A program made the position numbers and the translations under genes. A model generated the notes under the pieces. That model made no database searches. It saw only the letters and a list, made by a program, of their open reading frames with translations, and had not been told where the DNA came from. Positions 1-21,415 of a DNA stretch of 34,544 nucleotides are shown piece by piece (the stretch's first letter is position 1; each line of letters opens with the position of its first letter). This DNA is from a virus (Duplodnaviria > Heunggongvirae > Uroviricota > Caudoviricetes), in IMG/VR virus record IMGVR_UViG_2529292736_000012; one strand, 5' to 3'.

Positions 1-300
1 ACGTTTGGGCTGGATGTAGTAGCGCAACATGGAACGGCCACCGGTATAACCCATCGCTTTGATTTCCGCCAGGATGACCTCGCCGTTCCAGACGTTCTCA
101 GCCAGACGCATATCTATATAGTCCATGAACGGCTTGAGTTTGGCCATTTTGTGGCGTGTTTTTCTGGCCGGAGGTTCCGGGTATTTCAGGTACCGTCTGA
201 CGGTCCGCTCAGAGCAACCAACCTGAGTGGCAATATCAACAATATACGCACCTTGCTGGCGCATTTGCTTTATCATGTAAAAATCCTCTCTGCTCAGCAT
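1..300 (-). CDS. istA: IS21-family transposase IstA, N-terminal fragment (ORF runs off the window)
   Basis: ATG at 300..298; open frame to position 1; recognised IstA N-terminal HTH sequence. Confidence 0.7.
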   Translation of the reverse strand, partial: MLSREDFYMIKQMRQQGAYIVDIATQVGCSERTVRRYLKYPEPPARKTRHKMAKLKPFMDYIDMRLAENVWNGEVILAEIKAMGYTGGRSMLRYYIQPKR

Positions 301-373
301 GAGTGTTCCCTTTGTGGTGTAGGAACCTTAAGGAAACAACATGTTGGGTGGAGCGGACAATCCAAATGGTGAA
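1..373 (-). mobile_element. IS21-family insertion sequence, partial (one end plus 5' part of istA); continues beyond window start. Exact terminus uncertain, somewhere in ~340-376
   Basis: Minus-strand ORF 300..1 translates to MLSREDFYMIKQMRQQGAYIVDIATQVGCSERTVRRYLKYPEPPARKTRHKMAKLKPFMDYIDMRLAENVWNGEV..., which I recognise as the HTH N-terminus of IS21/IS100-type IstA. Upstream leader contains TTTGGATTGTCCGCTCCACC. Confidence 0.7.
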
Positions 374-1540
374 TTACTGTCTTATATCATTGGCGCTGAC
401 ACCGTTCCTGTAATTCACGCGGAACTGTACAGCAGGGCAGCTCCCCGTATTCATATTGAAATGTAGGATTAATGTTGTTGCGCCACCAATATTTGCGTTA
501 TAGACCCCGCTATTCCAGTTCCAGCCAACAGCTTTATCATTTCCGACAGTGCTTCCTGTTTGCCCTAAAGCAAATGCAGGCTGCTGGTTTTTCGTGTTGT
601 AGTCTCGACGCCAGCCAGGAGCATAAGCATCACCATGATTAATATAAGTGAATTGAGCGTTAGTAATTCCGCCACCGCTGGAAGTGCTCGGGGTGGTTAC
701 ACGGATGGTCATGGCTCCTTTATTACCCATAACCTCAATAACGCAACCTGCAAGATGAATAGTTCCACAGCCAGTATCGGTAATAATTTTATTATTGCCG
801 TATGACCATGAACATTTGCACATCCAGTATGGGTGATTGAATGCCCCTTGAGAATCCAGCCATTCAATCAATTGTGCCGTCGTCCAGTTTCCTGCACCTG
901 TGCTAATAGCACCATGAAAAGAGCGGCAAGCACCTATTGTTTGCGTAAATTTATCTTTGTTTGGAATATCTGCGCCATTCTGGTTTTTCTGTAATGCGCC
1001 AGAAGCCTGATTTACCGTTTCCTGTAAACCGACGTTTTGGATAAACAGCGGCTTATTGGGAATATCTGCTCCGTTCCGGTCTTTTGCCAGACGGGCATTG
1101 GCATTATCCATCGCAATTTTCACCGCTTTTGCGGTGGCTGCCAGCGTTTCACTGGGGCTGTCAGTGGCACTGGTTAGCTGAACGAGTCCTTTTTTGTTCA
1201 GGCTGGCATCATAGATATCCAGATTTTCACGTGCTGTACGCTGTGCTGATGCCCCGGCAGTTTTAATTTCGCTGAGGTTATTTTTTATCAGCAGCGCGTT
1301 ATTGCTCATAATGGCTTTAATGGACAGTGCAAGCTGGTTTAATTTTGTTTTATCCGGTTGAATACCGGCTTCTTCCAGCGTGTTTAATAACTCCGCCTGC
1401 ACAATATTAAACCAGTCCATGCCGGGCCATGTGATAACATTATTCCCGTCACCTTCTGAAAACCAGCGAACGATAGCACTACGCTGGGCGGATACGGGCG
1501 GCATGACGGTTACGCCGCTGTCGTTATCAATATAAAACAT
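374..1540 (-). CDS. S: Mu-type tail fibre protein S (constant N-terminal part plus a short variable C-terminal part)
   Basis: 388-aa ORF; N-terminus MFYIDNDSGVTVMPPVSAQRSAIVRWFSEGDGNNVITWPGMDWF matches Mu S as I recall it; last gene of the tail module; contains gix-like site. Confidence 0.8.
   Translation of the reverse strand: MFYIDNDSGVTVMPPVSAQRSAIVRWFSEGDGNNVITWPGMDWFNIVQAELLNTLEEAGIQPDKTKLNQLALSIKAIMSNNALLIKNNLSEIKTAGASAQRTARENLDIYDASLNKKGLVQLTSATDSPSETLAATAKAVKIAMDNANARLAKDRNGADIPNKPLFIQNVGLQETVNQASGALQKNQNGADIPNKDKFTQTIGACRSFHGAISTGAGNWTTAQLIEWLDSQGAFNHPYWMCKCSWSYGNNKIITDTGCGTIHLAGCVIEVMGNKGAMTIRVTTPSTSSGGGITNAQFTYINHGDAYAPGWRRDYNTKNQQPAFALGQTGSTVGNDKAVGWNWNSGVYNANIGGATTLILHFNMNTGSCPAVQFRVNYRNGVSANDIRQ
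1017..1042. other. gix-like DNA invertase (Gin/Hin family) crossover site inside S
   Basis: TTCCTGTAAACC-GA-CGTTTTGGATAA, two 12-bp half-sites with partial dyad symmetry, closely resembling the Mu gix site as I recall it; lies at the constant/variable junction of S (encodes FIQNVGLQETV). Confidence 0.55.
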
Positions 1541-2082
1541 TAGTTATCTCCGTCATGGTAAACAAATTTATAAATCTGATGCGCGGGTTTATATTTCTCC
1601 AGTAAACATTCCAGCGCACCCGATTCATAAACACGTAACGGCGTCAGAACATTATCCAGCACCGTTGCGTTGCGATAATTTTTAATACCGTAAATATTGA
1701 CCTGCGTAACCCACTGGCCTTCTGTGGAATCCGTCAGCCTGACGGTAAAACCGTACTGCGCAGCCAGCCATTCATAAAAGCGCCGACTCAGATTGCCGGT
1801 CATACGCATTTTATTCGCGGCAGCCCGCTGGCGTTCGGACAGGGTGCCGTTTTCGCTTGTACAGTCCGGCAACCCCAGAAATGATTCCCACTCACCCAGA
1901 TACCAGCGGGATGTGGACGGGAAACGCTCCCGCAGCATTTGTCGCGCATCATCCGCCGCAGTGGCAATCACGTCGCTGATGGCCTGCGCCAGCGCAGATA
2001 ATTTGCTGTCGGGGCTTTTATTCCAGGCAAGCCCTGACGGCAGTAATTGCAGAAAGGCCGTCTGCCAGGGTGTTACAGCCAT
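1540..2082 (-). CDS. R: Mu gp48 (R)-like tail/baseplate protein (P2 gpI-like)
   Basis: 180-aa ORF immediately upstream of S; position in the Mu tail module. Confidence 0.7.
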   Translation of the reverse strand: MAVTPWQTAFLQLLPSGLAWNKSPDSKLSALAQAISDVIATAADDARQMLRERFPSTSRWYLGEWESFLGLPDCTSENGTLSERQRAAANKMRMTGNLSRRFYEWLAAQYGFTVRLTDSTEGQWVTQVNIYGIKNYRNATVLDNVLTPLRVYESGALECLLEKYKPAHQIYKFVYHDGDN

Positions 2083-5302: not shown

Positions 5303-5327
5303 TGAACCGCCCCGGGAATCCTGGAGA
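5303..5327 (+). repeat. IS left terminal inverted repeat
   Basis: TGAACCGCCCCGGGAATCCTGGAGA; matches the right end in 22 of 24 positions. Confidence 0.85.
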
Positions 5328-5356
5328 CTAAACTCCCTGAGAAAGAGGTAAACAGG

Positions 5357-5683
5357 ATGACTAAAAATACTCGTTTTTCCCCCGAAGTCCGTCAGAGGGC
5401 GATTCGTATGGTTCTGGAAAGTCAGGGCGAATATGACTCACAGTGGGCGGCAATTTGTTCCATTGCCCCAAAGATTGACTGTACACCGGAGACTCTGCGT
5501 GTCTGGGTACGCCAGCATGAGCGGGATACCGGAGGCGGTGATGGCGGGCTCACCACCGCTGAACGTCAGCGTCTGAAAGAGCTGGAACGTGAAAATCGTG
5601 AACTGCGCCGCAGTAACGATATCCTTCGCCAGGCTTCCGCTTATTTTGCGAAGGCGGAGTTCGACCGCCTCTGGAAAAAGTGA
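5357..5683 (+). CDS. IS3-family transposase OrfA (HTH / leucine-zipper part)
   Basis: 108-aa [33 protein letters not shown]...AEFDRLWKK, recognised as IS629-type OrfA. Confidence 0.9.
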
Positions 5684-6570
5684 TGCCACTGCTGGATAAG
5701 CTGCGTAAGCTGTACGGGGTCGGACCGGTATGCAGTGAACTACATATTGCCCCGTCAACGTATTACCACTGTCAGCAACAGCGACATCATCCTGATAAAC
5801 GCAGTGCCCGTGCGCAGCGCGATGACTGGCTGAAGAAAGAGATACTGCGCGTATACGATGGGAATCATCAGGTATACGGTGTGCGTAAAGTCTGGCGTCA
5901 GTTGTTACGGGAAGGAATCAGGGTAGCCAGATGTACAGTGGCGCGCCTCATGGCGGTTATGGGACTTGCCGGTGTTCTCCGGGGTAAAAAGGTCCGCACT
6001 ACCGTCAGCCGGAAAGCCGTTGCCGCAGGCGACCGCGTAAACCGTCAGTTTGTGGCAGAACGTCCTGACCAGTTGTGGGTGGCTGATTTTACTTACGTCA
6101 GCACATGGCAGGGGGTCGTCTATGTGGCGTTCATCATTGATGTGTTTGCCGGATACATCGTGGGGTGGCGGGTCTCATCGTCTATGGAAACGACATTCGT
6201 GCTGGATGCTCTGGAGCAGGCGTTATGGGCCCGTCGACCGTCCGGCACAGTCCATCACAGTGATAAAGGTTCTCAGTATGTATCGCTGGCCTACACACAG
6301 CGGCTTAAGGAAGCCGGATTACTGGCATCAACAGGAAGTACTGGTGACTCGTATGACAACGCGATGGCGGAGAGCATCAATGGCCTTTACAAAGCGGAGG
6401 TAATACACCGTAAGAGCTGGAAAAACCGGACAGAAGTGGAGCTGGCCACACTCACGTGGGTGGACTGGTATAACAATCGACGATTGCTGGAAAGGCTGGG
6501 CCATATCCCACCGGCAGAAGCAGAAAAAGCTTATTATGCTTCCATCGGAAACGATGATCTGGCAGCCTGA
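5680..6570 (+). CDS. IS3-family transposase OrfB (DDE catalytic part), expressed as an OrfAB fusion by -1 frameshift
   Basis: 296-aa ORF in the -1 frame relative to orfA, overlapping at GAAAAAG (5674..5680); integrase-core-like sequence (…HHSDKGSQY…YDNAMAES…). Confidence 0.9.
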
Positions 6571-6588
6571 GTTCACAGATAAAACACT

Positions 6589-6612
6589 CTCCAGGAAACC
6601 CGGGGCGGTTCA
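6589..6612 (-). repeat. IS right terminal inverted repeat
   Basis: Reverse complement reads TGAACCGCCCCGGGTTTCCTGGAG. Confidence 0.85.
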
Positions 6613-15176: not shown

Positions 15177-16258
15177 TTTTCTTGTTCCTGTTTCATTTTC
15201 AGATACTCAGCCTCAGTAATGCCGAGCGCCTTCACTGCTGCCTGTTCATCAGCAGACAGCACCGCCACCGCCGGTTTTTCCTGCGACGGGATTTTCGCTG
15301 TGGTGGTCTGCATGGCAGATAACGCAGCGATGGGCTGTTTTTTCTCAAGCTGTGCCGACAGTGCCGCCACGCCAATCTGACCGCCAAGCTGTTCCAGATA
15401 GGTACGTTCGCTTTTGAAAATGCGGCCTTCCTGTTCCGCCTTGTCCAGAACGGCGCTCAGGCTGGCTGTGGCGCTTTGTGCAGTCGCCTGTGCCAGTTCA
15501 TCACGCAGGGCGTTGTAGCTTTCCACAGGGACGTATTTCGTCAGGTCAACGGCGGCTTTCTGTGCCTTTTCCAGTTCGGCGGATAACGACGCCACTTTTC
15601 CGGCATCTGTTTCGAGCGCATCAAGCGCACTCAGGGCCGCGCTGGCCTGTTCATCGGTGATGTCTGCATTTTCGGGGACAGTCACCCCAAGACGCGCAAG
15701 CAGCTTGCGCAGCGTTTCATTCATGGGTTTGTTCTCCTGTTGAAGGATGTCGGGAAGGTCTGCCGCCAGTGCGGTCAGCTTTTTCATGCCGGTGGCACCG
15801 GGGTCATTGGTCAGCGCAGCAAGGCGGATTTGCAGCACCGCACCGGTGGCGGTGTCATACGGAAAAACCGCAGAGAGATAACCAAATTCGCCGTCATCGA
15901 TGCGCTGCTGGGCCGCCGCCGTCCAGCGTGGGTGGATAAATAACCCTTCACCTTCACGCCACTGCATTTCATCGGCGTTAAACCAGCCAGCCGCGACGAG
16001 TTGTTCCGGGGGTAATCCTTTGTCCTTACGTAGCTGGTTATGCTCGTAATCAATCAGCACGTCCTGGTTGAGCGCGCGAATGCCTTCAACCAGACGCCCG
16101 GCAATCTCACCGTCGATGAACCACCCCTGACCACCTGTCACATCAAACGGGCGACCATCACGGGCACTGAAATGACCGGCAGGCAATAGCTGGCACCAGC
16201 CGTCATCGTCAATGGACAGCGCATTCAGTGCGGCAATGCCAATCGCGTGTTTTTTCAT
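15173..16258 (-). CDS. I: Head maturation protease / scaffold protein (Mu I, gp32; Z from internal start)
   Basis: 361-aa ORF with N-terminal protease-like part and Ala/Glu/Gln-rich helical C-terminus typical of a scaffold. Confidence 0.85.
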   Translation of the reverse strand: MKKHAIGIAALNALSIDDDGWCQLLPAGHFSARDGRPFDVTGGQGWFIDGEIAGRLVEGIRALNQDVLIDYEHNQLRKDKGLPPEQLVAAGWFNADEMQWREGEGLFIHPRWTAAAQQRIDDGEFGYLSAVFPYDTATGAVLQIRLAALTNDPGATGMKKLTALAADLPDILQQENKPMNETLRKLLARLGVTVPENADITDEQASAALSALDALETDAGKVASLSAELEKAQKAAVDLTKYVPVESYNALRDELAQATAQSATASLSAVLDKAEQEGRIFKSERTYLEQLGGQIGVAALSAQLEKKQPIAALSAMQTTTAKIPSQEKPAVAVLSADEQAAVKALGITEAEYLKMKQEQEK

Positions 16259-16454
16259 GTCCTGCTGCTCATCATGGTTTGTGAGCAGTCAGTTTGCGGG
16301 AGGTGCGGGAAAATCTGGGGTTATGCTATTTGAGTAATGGAGAAAGAAAGTGAAAGGAAGATAAAACGGGATTCATACACCGTTAAATACCGGTTTAAAA
16401 ATCCCGTGGCGCGTTTTAAAAAATCTGTGCGGCTGATTTCATGTCTGATTCCGT
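16259..16454 (-). promoter_or_regulatory. G-I intergenic region: candidate late promoter for I and candidate Mu central strong gyrase site
   Basis: 196-bp non-coding gap in an otherwise tightly packed operon; motif TTCCCGCACCT shared with the region upstream of lys; inverted repeat ACGGGATT...AATCCCGT; located near the middle of the prophage. Confidence 0.5.
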
Positions 16455-16925
16455 TTATTGCCTCAGAGCGGCGCTGACGCGTTTTCTGATGGCATCAAAA
16501 ATTTCCTGTTCCCCGGTCTTATCCAGCCCCATATAAGGACGCGCAGGAACGCCTGCCGGGCGGGGTGCCATATCGGGTGTACCGCCCCACTGATGAATGG
16601 CAGCATAAATTTTTGGCGAACCAATCAGGGCATAATCCTGTCCATAATCGGTGGTAATGCTGCGTGCCAGATCGCCATGCAGGGTAAGAATACTGCCCGG
16701 AACAAAACCATGATCCTGACGCCATGCCTGCCACGAATCGCTCCACGCTTCCCAGCCTTTCCCTGTATCCGGGTCTGCCTGCCGTTCAAATGCCTGTTCC
16801 GTGGATGACAGCAGCGCCGCAGCCATCACACGGGGAATGGCGCGGTCACGTGTAACGGTTCCCAGTTCATCCAGTGCAAGCTGAATACGTCGCACATCCA
16901 CGGCAACGTTCATATCAAGACTCAC
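16455..16925 (-). CDS. G: Mu G (gp31) head protein
   Basis: 156-aa ORF; synteny. Confidence 0.75.
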   Translation of the reverse strand: MSLDMNVAVDVRRIQLALDELGTVTRDRAIPRVMAAALLSSTEQAFERQADPDTGKGWEAWSDSWQAWRQDHGFVPGSILTLHGDLARSITTDYGQDYALIGSPKIYAAIHQWGGTPDMAPRPAGVPARPYMGLDKTGEQEIFDAIRKRVSAALRQ

Positions 16926-18277
16926 TTATTCACCTCCACATGCCCCTCCAGTACGTCAATCATCCCGTCAGCAATCGCGGCTTCAAGCGACTGTGCAGAT
17001 ACGCGGCTGATACTGACCAGCACATCCGCACGGTCATTCTGTCTGCCGACTGTCTGTGATGTTCTGACCACAATCCGGGCCATGCCGTCACGGGTTGCCA
17101 CAACATACAGCAACTGGTGGTTCTCCCTGTCCCACAATACCGCCTGTGGTTTTGCCATCAGCGACGGCAGACGCTGTAAATCCTCCGGTTTCAGGGCGGC
17201 ATCAGAAGTGGTCGCCAGACTTTTCCCGTTCATCACAAGCAGACGGGCTGGCATATTCCCGGTGCGCTGATATACGGCCTCCGCCACGGATCCCGTCATA
17301 AAACCCAGCGCACGGACCTCATGTCCTGCCCGGCGTGATTTCGCCAGACGTTTAAGCCAGAGGGAAAAAGCAAGCTGACGCTCCCGGCTGTTATTCAGCG
17401 TCTGAACAACCTGCTCACGCAGCTGCGCGTCACGAACTTCCACCAGTTTTCGAATCAGTGCCTGATCCGTACCAAATGCCGCCGAACCGGGGTTATATGA
17501 CCAGCCCACATCTGGCGTCATTTTTACCCGACCGTTGTCAAACGTGGTTGACGATGTGCGGAAAATCTCTCCGGTGCTTTCATCCGTACCGGCATCCACT
17601 TCGCGGGTATTCATGAATGACGCACCATAACTGACCTGTAGCCCCAGTTCTTTCATGCGGGCCGCAGACAGCGCCCGGACGCGACAGCGGCAGTTCCAGC
17701 CATTGGGCGGGTAATGCGTCTGCCAGAAAATGTCGTCATACTGGAAAACCATATTGTGCAGCCGCGCATGTTCCGGGCGTGTTCTGCCATCCATAACGGC
17801 AACGTACTGCCAGTACGGGTACAAATCGGCGGTATTCATCATCTGCGCATAACGTCCTGCCCCATACGCCGTACGGGTATTGACGTTATAAATGGTTGCC
17901 AGACGACGCGGACTGCCCAGTTCGATTTCCTTCGCGTTTCCCTCTGCATCCACGATGATTTGTTTTCCCCACCATCCGAGTTTTTGCAGCCGGGGGGCCA
18001 GTGTGCGGGTAAATTCCTCACGGGTGATGCCTTCACTGACAGCCCGCTCCACTTCCTCACGGATTGTGGTCAGGACATCCATCCGGGTGGCTTTGGCAAC
18101 GGTAAAGGCGCGGGCGTGCGCGTCTGCCAGTTGTTCGTACCAGTTCCAGGTGATGTTGTAGCCTTTGGCGCGGAAATACGCGACAGCCTCCTTTGGCGGG
18201 AGGCGTGCGGCATACGCCAGATCAATGGTCTGCTGCGGCATCCAGACGCCCCCATATATCGGCAACAAAAATGGCAC
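16922..18277 (-). CDS. F: Mu F (gp30) virion morphogenesis protein
   Basis: 451-aa ORF directly after portal gene. Confidence 0.8.
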   Translation of the reverse strand: MPFLLPIYGGVWMPQQTIDLAYAARLPPKEAVAYFRAKGYNITWNWYEQLADAHARAFTVAKATRMDVLTTIREEVERAVSEGITREEFTRTLAPRLQKLGWWGKQIIVDAEGNAKEIELGSPRRLATIYNVNTRTAYGAGRYAQMMNTADLYPYWQYVAVMDGRTRPEHARLHNMVFQYDDIFWQTHYPPNGWNCRCRVRALSAARMKELGLQVSYGASFMNTREVDAGTDESTGEIFRTSSTTFDNGRVKMTPDVGWSYNPGSAAFGTDQALIRKLVEVRDAQLREQVVQTLNNSRERQLAFSLWLKRLAKSRRAGHEVRALGFMTGSVAEAVYQRTGNMPARLLVMNGKSLATTSDAALKPEDLQRLPSLMAKPQAVLWDRENHQLLYVVATRDGMARIVVRTSQTVGRQNDRADVLVSISRVSAQSLEAAIADGMIDVLEGHVEVNK

Positions 18278-19760
18278 GGGTCAGCATGTCGATAAGTTCT
18301 GCATCATCCATCTGCGGATATAATGAAGCGGCTTTGTTCATGGCGGCTTCCGGGCCATCTTTCAGCACAGAAAAAATGACGGGTTTCAGCAGGGGGTCAA
18401 CCGAACGCTGCCAGTCTTCCGGTGAGACGCCCATCCGGTCGATATCATCCTCCTGCGGGATATCTTCAGCGGATAATGCGGCCTCTTTCTGCGAACCGTT
18501 ATCCGGGACAACCGGTTGTATAGTAAACACGGCTTCATCACCGACCGGCTGTGGAATATGAAGTTTTTCCTGTATCCAGGAGACCGGAATACGCATTCCC
18601 GCCGCCAGTTTCGGAATGGCGTCAGACAGTGCCGTAATATCACCCGCTTCACTGGTATCAAATACAATGCCCGGCAGGCGGTTAATATCAATGGTGCTGT
18701 CACTGTTCAGTGCCAGCAGGGGATAAATCAGGTCACGGTTAATACTGCGGGCAAGCTGGCCCACATCCGCATTACGGATTTCCCGGCGAACCTCATCATG
18801 CACTTCACCCAGCGACCGCGCACCTTTATCGCCAGCCTCTGTGGTCAGGGTGCCGCCCAGAATGGCTTTTGAAATCGCTTTTTCTGCCCAGCCAATCATC
18901 GCCATAAAAGGGTCTGACTGACCATCTGCGGCGCTCTGAAAATCCAGCGTCATCCCCATCGGAATAATGCCACCGGCACGTCGCCCGATATCCATCACGG
19001 CCTGCATCAGCGTGGCTTTCTCGCGGTTCGTTGAGCCGGTCGGATATTTACCGACGCGCATGGGGAGTCCGTAAATTTCCAGAAACTCTGCAAAATCACG
19101 CACGGAATAGTTTTTAAAAATAAAAGGCCAGATAAGCGTGCGCACAAGGCCATTGGTGCCGACATACCCGGTGCGGGATTTGGCCCGGTGCATAAACCAG
19201 CCGAACGGTTGCAGCTCCAGCCCGTGATAAGACGCATCACGCAGGCGTAATTCGTTCAGATTGTCGGGGTTCGCGCAAAATAGCGCCGGATCGCGATGAT
19301 GCAGCGCCACCGGCACGCGCATTTTCCCCAGCCAGCCCCATTCAATCTCCTGCATGGAATAGCCCTTGAGAATGGCATCACCGGCATCAAACAGGGCATC
19401 TTCAAACCACGCCGCATCATGCAGATATTCATTCAGCATGTCGGCGTCTTTTTTCTCCTGTGCGCTGGCATCACGTGCCGGAGCGATGCGCCATTCCAGC
19501 GCCTGAATGGCAAGGCGGCGTTTGCTCAGTTCGGAAAAAAGGTGGGTGTCCTTTTCTTCCATATCAAAGGCCAGGTCAGCCTGTGCTGTCAGATCACCGC
19601 GTTCGGCATCACGCAGCATCTGCGCGGCCCGGTTCGGCGTCACACCACTGGAAGGATGCTCCTGCGTACGCTTCATGACCATTGCCAGCTCATCGCTGCG
19701 GGTCTGCATTTCATCGTCAAAATCAAACGGCTGCCCGGAAATATCCAGAATACGGCCCAT
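18222..19760 (-). CDS. H: Portal protein (Mu H, gp29)
   Basis: 512-aa ORF directly after the large terminase gene. Confidence 0.85.
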   Translation of the reverse strand: MGRILDISGQPFDFDDEMQTRSDELAMVMKRTQEHPSSGVTPNRAAQMLRDAERGDLTAQADLAFDMEEKDTHLFSELSKRRLAIQALEWRIAPARDASAQEKKDADMLNEYLHDAAWFEDALFDAGDAILKGYSMQEIEWGWLGKMRVPVALHHRDPALFCANPDNLNELRLRDASYHGLELQPFGWFMHRAKSRTGYVGTNGLVRTLIWPFIFKNYSVRDFAEFLEIYGLPMRVGKYPTGSTNREKATLMQAVMDIGRRAGGIIPMGMTLDFQSAADGQSDPFMAMIGWAEKAISKAILGGTLTTEAGDKGARSLGEVHDEVRREIRNADVGQLARSINRDLIYPLLALNSDSTIDINRLPGIVFDTSEAGDITALSDAIPKLAAGMRIPVSWIQEKLHIPQPVGDEAVFTIQPVVPDNGSQKEAALSAEDIPQEDDIDRMGVSPEDWQRSVDPLLKPVIFSVLKDGPEAAMNKAASLYPQMDDAELIDMLTRAIFVADIWGRLDAAADH

Positions 19761-21415
19761 TACCAGCCCCCTCGTTCAAACTGGTGATAATCATCAAAAT
19801 CATCGTTATCAACATCATCACCACGGTGGCGTGGTGGCAGCGCCTGTATGCTGTCCTCGTCGATAACAAAACCATTCATATAAGACGCTCTGACAGCCAT
19901 ACAGAGCGCCACGGCAAAGTCGCCATGTCGTCGGCCTTTACCGCCTTCATCTTTTGTGCGCCCCTTATCAATCTGCGGAATACCTTTGTCCACCTTGATG
20001 TGGAGCAGGTCATCAAGTGTGGTCTGGTGCCGGGCAATCGTGATGTTCGGCGCTTCAAACTCGCCTTTCAGTTTTGGCATCCACTCCTGATACCAGGATG
20101 CGGTCAGATTCACACAGTCGATCATCTCCGGGCCATAAATCAGACGGGCGGCTTCTGCCAGATAACCGCCGTTACCGGTGGCATCAAATGCAGCGCCGGT
20201 AAAACGGGGCAAACGGGACAGAATGAATAAAAGGATTTGTCGCTGCTGGTCATAGGTCACATTACGCAGCTCCACGCGGAAACATTCGCGTTTGCGTAAG
20301 TCTGGAGTGATGGCAAGCGGCACAAACACCGTCAGGTCGCCACGGCGTGCAAAGTCTTCGCCCAGTACGTGTTTATTGAGCGGCGACAGCGCATCGAGCA
20401 ACGGGAGCAGCTCCTGTTCACACCAGTCCTGAACGATGCCGTGGCGCATTTGTGGTGTCAGCGATTCAAAATCGTCCGGGGCTTCAAAACGCAGAATCGG
20501 GATATCCCGCGCTGGCGTCATGGCGGCTTCAATCAGCACGCGTGACAGATAAGCGCCCCCGGATTTTTTAGGAATGCAGCCGTATTCCTCGTCGGCACTC
20601 TCTTTATTCGGCGCATTCCGGTACAAGCCATCACGCCAGGCTTTTTCCGCTTCCGGCGACCACGGCTGATTCGTGACGTAACAGATACGTCGGTACAACC
20701 CGTCAGCGATGGCATCATCCAGCGTGATGCGGTGAACGCTGTAATCCTTGCGCCCCTCGCGCGCATCCTGAATGTACTGGTTAAACAGGTTATCGACGCC
20801 GTTATGTGTCGATATGATGCGCACGCTGGCACCCCACATGTTTAGTGCAAAGGCCGCTTTCAGCAGTTCGTCCAGGGCTTCATGGAATGCCGCCTCATCA
20901 ATCACCACGTCCCCCTGCAAACCACGCAGGTTAGACGGGCGGCTTGACAGCGCCTGTATCTTAAATCCGCTGTTCGGAAAGCGGATCATGTAGGTGAGGA
21001 TTTCTTCTTTTTTGTCGCTGTCCCAGAAGGTCTGCTCCCAGACGTCAGCCTTTGCCAGTTGGTTAAAGGCGCGGGCAAACAGGGCACAGGCGGCGATGTA
21101 TTCCAGCGCCATTTCCTGACGGGAACCCACATAAAAGACGTTGCGACCACCGCGACGCTTCGGCTTTGCGGCCGTCATGACATTGCGGCCCGCTTCAGCC
21201 CATGTCAGACCGGTTCGACGGGATTTTTCAGCAATACAAATCTGGCTTTCATCCTCAAACCAGCGGCGCTGATAGCCCAGAAAAACCGGTTCATTGCGGG
21301 GCTGTGCTTCCCCGATATCGGTCACGATATTCACGCCCAGCAGTCCGGCTTCCTTACGCAGGTCGATTTTGCGGGGCGCATGAAGGGCTTTAAGTTTGCT
21401 TTCTCTGGTACTCAT
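19760..21415 (-). CDS. Terminase large subunit (Mu gp28)
   Basis: 551-aa ORF; position between a small DNA-binding-type ORF and the portal gene. Confidence 0.85.
   Translation of the reverse strand: MSTRESKLKALHAPRKIDLRKEAGLLGVNIVTDIGEAQPRNEPVFLGYQRRWFEDESQICIAEKSRRTGLTWAEAGRNVMTAAKPKRRGGRNVFYVGSRQEMALEYIAACALFARAFNQLAKADVWEQTFWDSDKKEEILTYMIRFPNSGFKIQALSSRPSNLRGLQGDVVIDEAAFHEALDELLKAAFALNMWGASVRIISTHNGVDNLFNQYIQDAREGRKDYSVHRITLDDAIADGLYRRICYVTNQPWSPEAEKAWRDGLYRNAPNKESADEEYGCIPKKSGGAYLSRVLIEAAMTPARDIPILRFEAPDDFESLTPQMRHGIVQDWCEQELLPLLDALSPLNKHVLGEDFARRGDLTVFVPLAITPDLRKRECFRVELRNVTYDQQRQILLFILSRLPRFTGAAFDATGNGGYLAEAARLIYGPEMIDCVNLTASWYQEWMPKLKGEFEAPNITIARHQTTLDDLLHIKVDKGIPQIDKGRTKDEGGKGRRHGDFAVALCMAVRASYMNGFVIDEDSIQALPPRHRGDDVDNDDFDDYHQFERGGW

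Follow-up and report, generated by a model that had tools for sequence, protein, structure and literature searches.

An ISEc62-like insertion in a Mu-type prophage: interruption of the tail fibre gene within the G segment

The analyzed window, a stretch of 34,544 nt, corresponds to bases 2..34545 of contig AIHJ01000030.1, window base 1 being contig base 2. It carries a Mu-related prophage that, over 4.3 kb, shares 98.6% nucleotide identity with Mu itself. Pfam analysis of the contig detected Mu repressor/transposase HTH, DDE_2, Mu-transpos_C, MuB_C, Gam, Mor, and GemA domains, and the structural identity to Mu together with the early region c, ner, A, and B assigned the prophage to Muvirus. 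Its attL was located 339 bp past the window end (at about contig position 34,883; L014 8929/8930), where ...TTCGTACTTCAAGTGAATCAATACA meets the host gene yfaP at codon 58. Insertion of Mu duplicates 5 bp of target DNA, one copy lying at attL and one at attR, and the duplication at the yfaP site is predicted to be ATGGC. The resulting YfaP'-Mu chimera of 77 aa was found under three DEC-project accessions, DEC13C and DEC13D being named, and this shared chimera indicates that the DEC13 strains have the same prophage at one and the same place in the chromosome. No yfaP::Mu attL junction was found in complete E. coli genomes. A search for a chimeric attR-side yfaP fragment found none; a 202-aa form of yfaP considered as such a fragment was rejected as a common alternative start call that is not diagnostic.

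At the beginning of the window, a tail fibre open reading frame (ORF) of 388 aa on the minus strand (374..1540) runs into a partial insertion sequence (IS). The constant part of the fibre (Sc; 1045..1540, minus strand) was nearly identical to that of Mu, with 99.5% identity over an Sc-containing stretch of 595 nt (1006..1600), and is common to both fibre versions of the DEC13 strains; nucleotide identity to Mu and D108 was 98.6% from the baseplate genes through Sc. At 1019..1044 we found TTCCTGTAAACCGACGTTTTGGATAA, a gix recombination site (gixL) in which 25 of 26 positions agree with the gix core of Mu, RM8082, and SfMu. The site was identical to the gixL of SfMu and coincided with the homology break among relatives. 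The 5' portion of the variable part of the fibre follows at 402..1018 (minus strand) and resembles SfMu gp49 and Mu S'; SfMu gp49 is itself of the Mu S' type (PMC4406740). The identity to the variable region of Mu S' was 84.6% over 402..1044, and alignments of 4.9 kb extended through the variable part in Yersinia phage vB_YpM_6 (97.6%) and in SfMu (NC_027382; 96.4% over the whole fibre-to-baseplate stretch).

Positions 1..401 (minus strand) constitute part of an ISEc62-like element of the IS21 family. A nucleotide search of E. coli with window 1..420 matched 2,868 records, the best of which showed 99.5-100% identity over 1..405-415 and were labeled by PGAP as "IS21-like element ISEc62 family" transposase. 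We compared three complete copies (L004, L005, and L006) situated at unrelated loci with different flanks. Each copy is 2,125 bp in length and carries two genes, istA (390 aa) and, after it, istB (264 aa); IstA contains HTH (HTH_23), rve, and Mu-transpos_C_2 domains, and IstB matched IstB_IS21 (E=1e-87). Window 1..401 showed 0 mismatches to the last 401 nt of these 2,125-bp copies, a match that chance cannot account for. The window holds just the first 401 bp of the element, comprising the istA-proximal terminal repeat, a leader of 101 nt, and istA codons 1-100 before the contig ends. The name ISEc62-like follows the PGAP annotation of identical copies. The 5' part of istA (1..300, minus strand; residues 1-100 of 390) was recognized by its translation, which begins MLSREDFYMIKQMRQQGAYIVDIATQVGCSERTVRRYLKYPEPP..., and by identity to the annotated istA of the complete copies. 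It matched NCBIfam NF033546 (IS21 family transposase; E=1e-15, 57.9 bits), the score being below the 160-bit cut-off because only 100 of the 390 IstA residues are present. These data confirmed the original prediction that the minus-strand ORF 300..1 encodes an IS21-family IstA N-terminus.

IS21-family elements characteristically carry consecutive istA (HTH and DDE/rve transposase) and istB (AAA+ helper ATPase) genes, imperfect terminal inverted repeats starting with 5'-TG, and target duplications of 4-8 bp. All of these traits were found here: istA and istB in the complete copies, repeats of the TG type, and 4-bp target duplications. The ends of the complete copies read TGTCAACGCCAAGATTAT... 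and ...ATATCATTGGCGCTGACA. In the window, the terminal inverted repeat of the left, istA-proximal end (382..401, minus strand) reads TGTCAGCGCCAATGATAT..., the opposite terminal repeat of the element reads TGTCAACGCCAAGATTAT, both being of the TGTCA... type, and the istB-proximal end is TGTCAACGCCAAGATTATTGG. The 4-bp duplications at four independent ISEc62-like insertions (1277/3401 in each of L004, L005, and L006, and 18431/20554 in L031, the DEC13D contig described below) were CCGT, CCGT, CTGT, and CCGT, and these four sites may point to a CYGT target preference of the element. A literature search on ISEc62 returned nothing beyond plasmid maps.

The exact terminus of the IS, for which an ISfinder search had been proposed, was instead determined by aligning the three independent copies with their differing flanks, which placed the IS end after ...GGCGCTGACA, at window position 401. 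One copy of a 4-bp target duplication, CCGT, adjoins it at 402..405; the same tetranucleotide is present at both IS ends in DEC13D, and the uninterrupted fibre gene of SfMu carries a single CCGT at this spot, corresponding to the empty site. The original prediction was right in calling an IS here. The boundary it gave, near the stop codon of S, needs to be moved, as this codon (376..374) lies inside the IS.

The consequence for the fibre ORF was evident from alignment with the intact homologue of the RM8082 Mu-like prophage (486 aa) and with the reconstruction from DEC13D described below. Residues 1-380 match the intact RM8082 gene with few substitutions up to ...FRVNYRNG, and residues 381-388 (VSANDIRQ) and the stop codon are IS-encoded. 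After NYRNG, the intact RM8082 fibre carries on with GIFYRSARDGYGF... for 106 further residues. The window fibre ORF is therefore a chimera, and the sequence comparison showed that about 106 C-terminal residues have been truncated from it. A gp37_C-like domain, located at residues 326-419 of the reconstructed intact fibre, is cut through by the insertion. The exact 388-aa chimera was found on just two contigs, AIHH01000046.1 and AIHJ01000030.1, both drafts of the E. coli DEC13 group, and is deposited under the name of DEC13C and under a second accession. The 388-aa "tail fiber protein" deposited for DEC13 genomes is thus an IS-truncated chimera, for which correct annotation matters.

It had been supposed that S is complete and ends naturally at 374..376, the IS lying just downstream, in U or in its place. 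An ORF with a fibre-repeat domain does end at these positions. However, 374..401 recurs unchanged at the end of IS copies located at unrelated loci, fibre homology stops at 402, and every intact relative aligned only from 400-408 onward. Moreover, intact fibre homologues (486 aa in RM8082 and 488 aa in SfMu) are 106-108 codons longer past the break, and excision of the IS in DEC13D gives back a long ORF. The IS-end identity, the fibre alignments, and the DEC13D excision together refute a natural end of S at this stop codon, and we regard it as barely conceivable.

Counted from gix at 1019..1044, the IS is inserted 617 bp inside the G segment. One of the placements originally considered, that the IS sits within this segment, was therefore borne out, and the full insertion is visible in DEC13D. 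U, U', S', gin, com, and mom were all absent from the window, as had been noticed from the sequence alone. In all relatives examined, the gene order is S-U-U'-S'-gin-com-mom-attR, with gin adjoining gixR. Contig breaks in multicopy IS elements are the usual outcome of short-read assembly, and the right-arm genes are very probably unseen here because the draft contig stops inside such an element; the apparent loss of the Mu right arm would then be a break in a draft assembly rather than biology. The DEC13C contig AIHH01000046.1 showed the same junction and also ends within the IS, 573 nt further in.

To the far side of the IS, we gained access through the sister strain DEC13D, whose contig AIHI01000017.1 (L031) was found via the DNA-circularisation protein of the window; the Baseplate_J protein proved too widespread to single out this strain. 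The IS of DEC13D occupies 18431..20554 and has CCGT at both ends. Directly behind it are the 3' remnant of the variable fibre part Sv, U (17569..18102, 177 aa), U' (17013..17540, 175 aa), and an intact alternative fibre. U and U' are both Caudo_TAP domain proteins. The intact fibre, Sc::S'v, is 586 aa in length (15251..17011) and has an alternative variable part of 412 aa. Removal in silico of the IS and one CCGT restored an open fibre gene of 486 aa. Inverted gix sequences flank the segment S'v-U'-U-Sv(::IS), and 2.1 kb of IS now stands between the interrupted fibre gene and its chaperone gene, U.

Taken together, these data argue strongly for a 2,125-bp ISEc62-like insertion in a Mu-type fibre gene within the G segment, the right arm being hidden by the contig break. 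According to this explanation, the ISEc62-like element of 2,125 bp would have transposed into codon 380 of the fibre gene, in the variable, receptor-binding part, and would have duplicated CCGT. The recipient would have been a Mu-group prophage with a variable part of the Mu S'/SfMu type, the insertion point lying 617 bp inside the Gin-invertible segment, and the insertion would have added eight IS-encoded residues and an IS-encoded stop to the fibre. Such an event can be regarded as an ordinary IS insertion in a decaying prophage, both components of which were already known and exist in identical or near-identical copies. The window strain would be expected, by analogy, to have the DEC13D-like remainder on another contig, with gin, com, mom, and attR following as in all relatives. 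In the orientation of the window, the far junction should read ...GAACGATAAAAAATACCGCCGT joined to TGTCAACGCCAAGATTATTGG, that is, the IS end joined to ...AATACCGCCGT and the 3' remnant of the fibre gene.

The joining of IS and fibre gene might instead be an assembly chimera with no true insertion behind it. The contig end in a repeat, as well as an oddity at the end of the DEC13D contig described below, could be taken in this sense. We nevertheless consider it highly improbable, as the junction is identical to the base in three independent assemblies (DEC13C, DEC13D, and the window strain), and the expected target duplication is found at both IS ends in DEC13D. The IS/fibre junction was found in none of the complete E. 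coli genomes, and the exact 41-nt junction pattern had no match in a contig collection with one genome per species. The absence of the junction from complete E. coli genomes marks it as lineage-specific, not as new in kind.

A genuine insertion leaves room for a secondary IS-mediated deletion or rearrangement in the window strain, by which the fibre remnant, U, U', S', gin, com, mom, and attR were removed or displaced. The far side of the IS is out of sight in the window, whose contig ends within the element, and the window strain is IS-active, having gained a further IS in the prophage. Only two NCBI accessions, moreover, are listed for the U and U' proteins of the DEC13D type, compared with three DEC13 lysogens. 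On the other hand, breaks in multicopy IS elements are normal for short-read assemblies, and DEC13C breaks in the same IS. In DEC13D the insertion is clean, with the 4-bp duplication and all downstream G-segment genes, so the suggestion that the IS had deleted or displaced the right arm found no support. The U and U' alleles of DEC13D are also rare, being found on three contigs only in a collection of 15 billion proteins, and a second DEC-project genome shares them (accessions EHX71296 and EHX71298). We consider such a deletion quite improbable. An intact U, a second gix site, and gin beyond the IS, with a target duplication, had been named beforehand as the sign of a simple insertion; of these, U and the duplication were seen in DEC13D, not in the window strain. 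The insertion hidden by a contig break thus remains our preferred explanation.

Several searches for the parts beyond the IS returned sequences from elsewhere. With the missing 106-aa C-terminus of the fibre as query, only unrelated strains were recovered; one match (P0010) was rejected as belonging to a P2-like prophage, and another (P0002) because it represented 2.3-kb contigs of other isolates, whose breaks fall close to this point and at gix. The protein collection contained none of the silent S'v ORFs that we postulated (371, 377, and 336 aa), and a search with the S'v variable part found relatives at 96-99% only, none from DEC13 strains. The DEC13 contigs recovered with window proteins or search representatives as queries showed no gin, com, mom, or attR. 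When an ORF was modeled across the far junction of the IS, it lacked an in-frame start codon, and no gene would be called there.

The orientation of the G segment differs among the sister strains. The configuration is Sc::Sv(::IS) in the window and in DEC13C; in DEC13D it is Sc::S'v, and the Sv that bears the IS occupies the silent position. The presence of the identical insertion in both orientations implies at least one inversion after the arrival of the IS; that is, inversion continued after the insertion. The invertase has presumably flipped the segment since then, although a different Gin/Pin/Hin-group invertase could in principle have acted in trans. Particles made in the window orientation would be without functional fibres; those made after flipping would rely on the intact S'v/U' pair.

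The end of the DEC13D contig (L031 21172..21328) reads Sv5'-gix and continues with a copy of the constant fibre part (window 1045..1176) in reverse. The flank there is the Sc-side AAACAG and not the gin-side sequence, and both gixL configurations are therefore found in one contig (gixL variant sites at 15772 and 21172 of L031). Their co-occurrence in the DEC13D assembly implies mixed orientations in the sequenced culture, and the oddity is most simply explained by the assembler walking through reads from both G orientations. The IS copy of DEC13D is 2,124 bp long, with a 1-nt deletion in istB at about IS coordinate 762; its istB is called as pieces of 225 aa and 31 aa. Compared with L004, this IS copy also shows six substitutions. 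The deletion reflects either a genuine, inactivating frameshift or an error in sequencing a homopolymer.

With respect to transcription, istA-istB are co-directional with the fibre gene, starting 74 nt past the chimeric stop, and no terminator-like site is found between this stop and the start of istA. Read-through from the late operon into istA-istB is therefore possible on the basis of the sequence. A promoter and terminator scan of window 1..1200 gave nothing above shuffled expectation. From the gene arrangement, it can further be imagined that the IS is a passenger of a still-inverting G segment, such that the infectivity conferred by the fibre and the read-through into the transposase would be phase-variable; we see this as a slim but real possibility. 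One phase would then have the IS-broken fibre, with late transcription running into istA-istB, and the other would express the intact alternative fibre, with the IS facing away. The SfMu-type gixL would in that case be proficient for inversion, contrary to the suspicion published for SfMu (PMC4406740).

This gixL has a G-to-C change right after the central GA, exactly as in the gixL of SfMu (L036 4756), and the authors describing SfMu suspected that the change may reduce or abolish G inversion (PMC4406740). Both configurations were present here among sister strains: in strains with the IS insertion in common, the SfMu-type gixL is linked to one or the other variable part. Inversion has thus taken place with this gixL variant. 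SfMu also shares with the DEC13 prophage the empty site with a single CCGT in its 488-aa gp49. It differs in being an intact, plaque-forming phage free of IS insertions, and its second variable part is unlike that of DEC13.

In Mu (NC_000929), the G segment consists of S, U, U', and S' between gix sites and is inverted by Gin. The DEC13 prophage resembles Mu in the gix core (25 of 26 positions), which is situated at the same place in the fibre gene, and in its Mu transposition and regulatory genes. By contrast, the variable part joined to Sc in the window is of the Mu S' type (about 85% identity), the alternative variable part of DEC13D is unrelated to Mu Sv, and the IS enlarges the segment by 2.1 kb. 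The RM8082 Mu-like prophage (NZ_CP043825) has the same gene order, with 97.7% identity in the fibre gene. RM8082 and the very common family of E. coli Mu-like prophages have a canonical right arm of the order S-U-U'-S'-recombinase-com-mom-host; prophages of this family are uninterrupted and lie at other chromosomal sites, as expected of transposing phages.

A second IS, of the IS3 family and about 1.31 kb in length, is present at window 5304..6612, with an overlap of 3-4 bp at its junctions. It encodes OrfA (5357..5683, plus strand) and OrfB (5680..6570, plus strand), identified by HTH_Tnp_1 and rve in the element and by the PGAP label "IS3 family transposase". On one side of the element is the stop of the DNA-circularisation gene (6616); on the other is the body of the gp44/P baseplate-hub gene. 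The element separates the first codons of the hub gene from the body, so that the hub gene now starts inside the IS, with a call of 382 aa, the intact version having 379 aa. The sister contigs of DEC13C and DEC13D lack this IS, which indicates that it is specific to the window strain and arrived later than the IS21-family element. With this extra IS at the start of the hub gene, the prophage of the window strain is probably decaying and yields no infectious particles in the orientation seen.

Contigs of 2,288 bp (L008 and L009) from unrelated E. coli isolates start a few bases at most from the equivalent of window 402-408 and end exactly at gix, which suggests that a recurrent mosaic or repeat boundary exists in this fibre type near the landing point of the IS.
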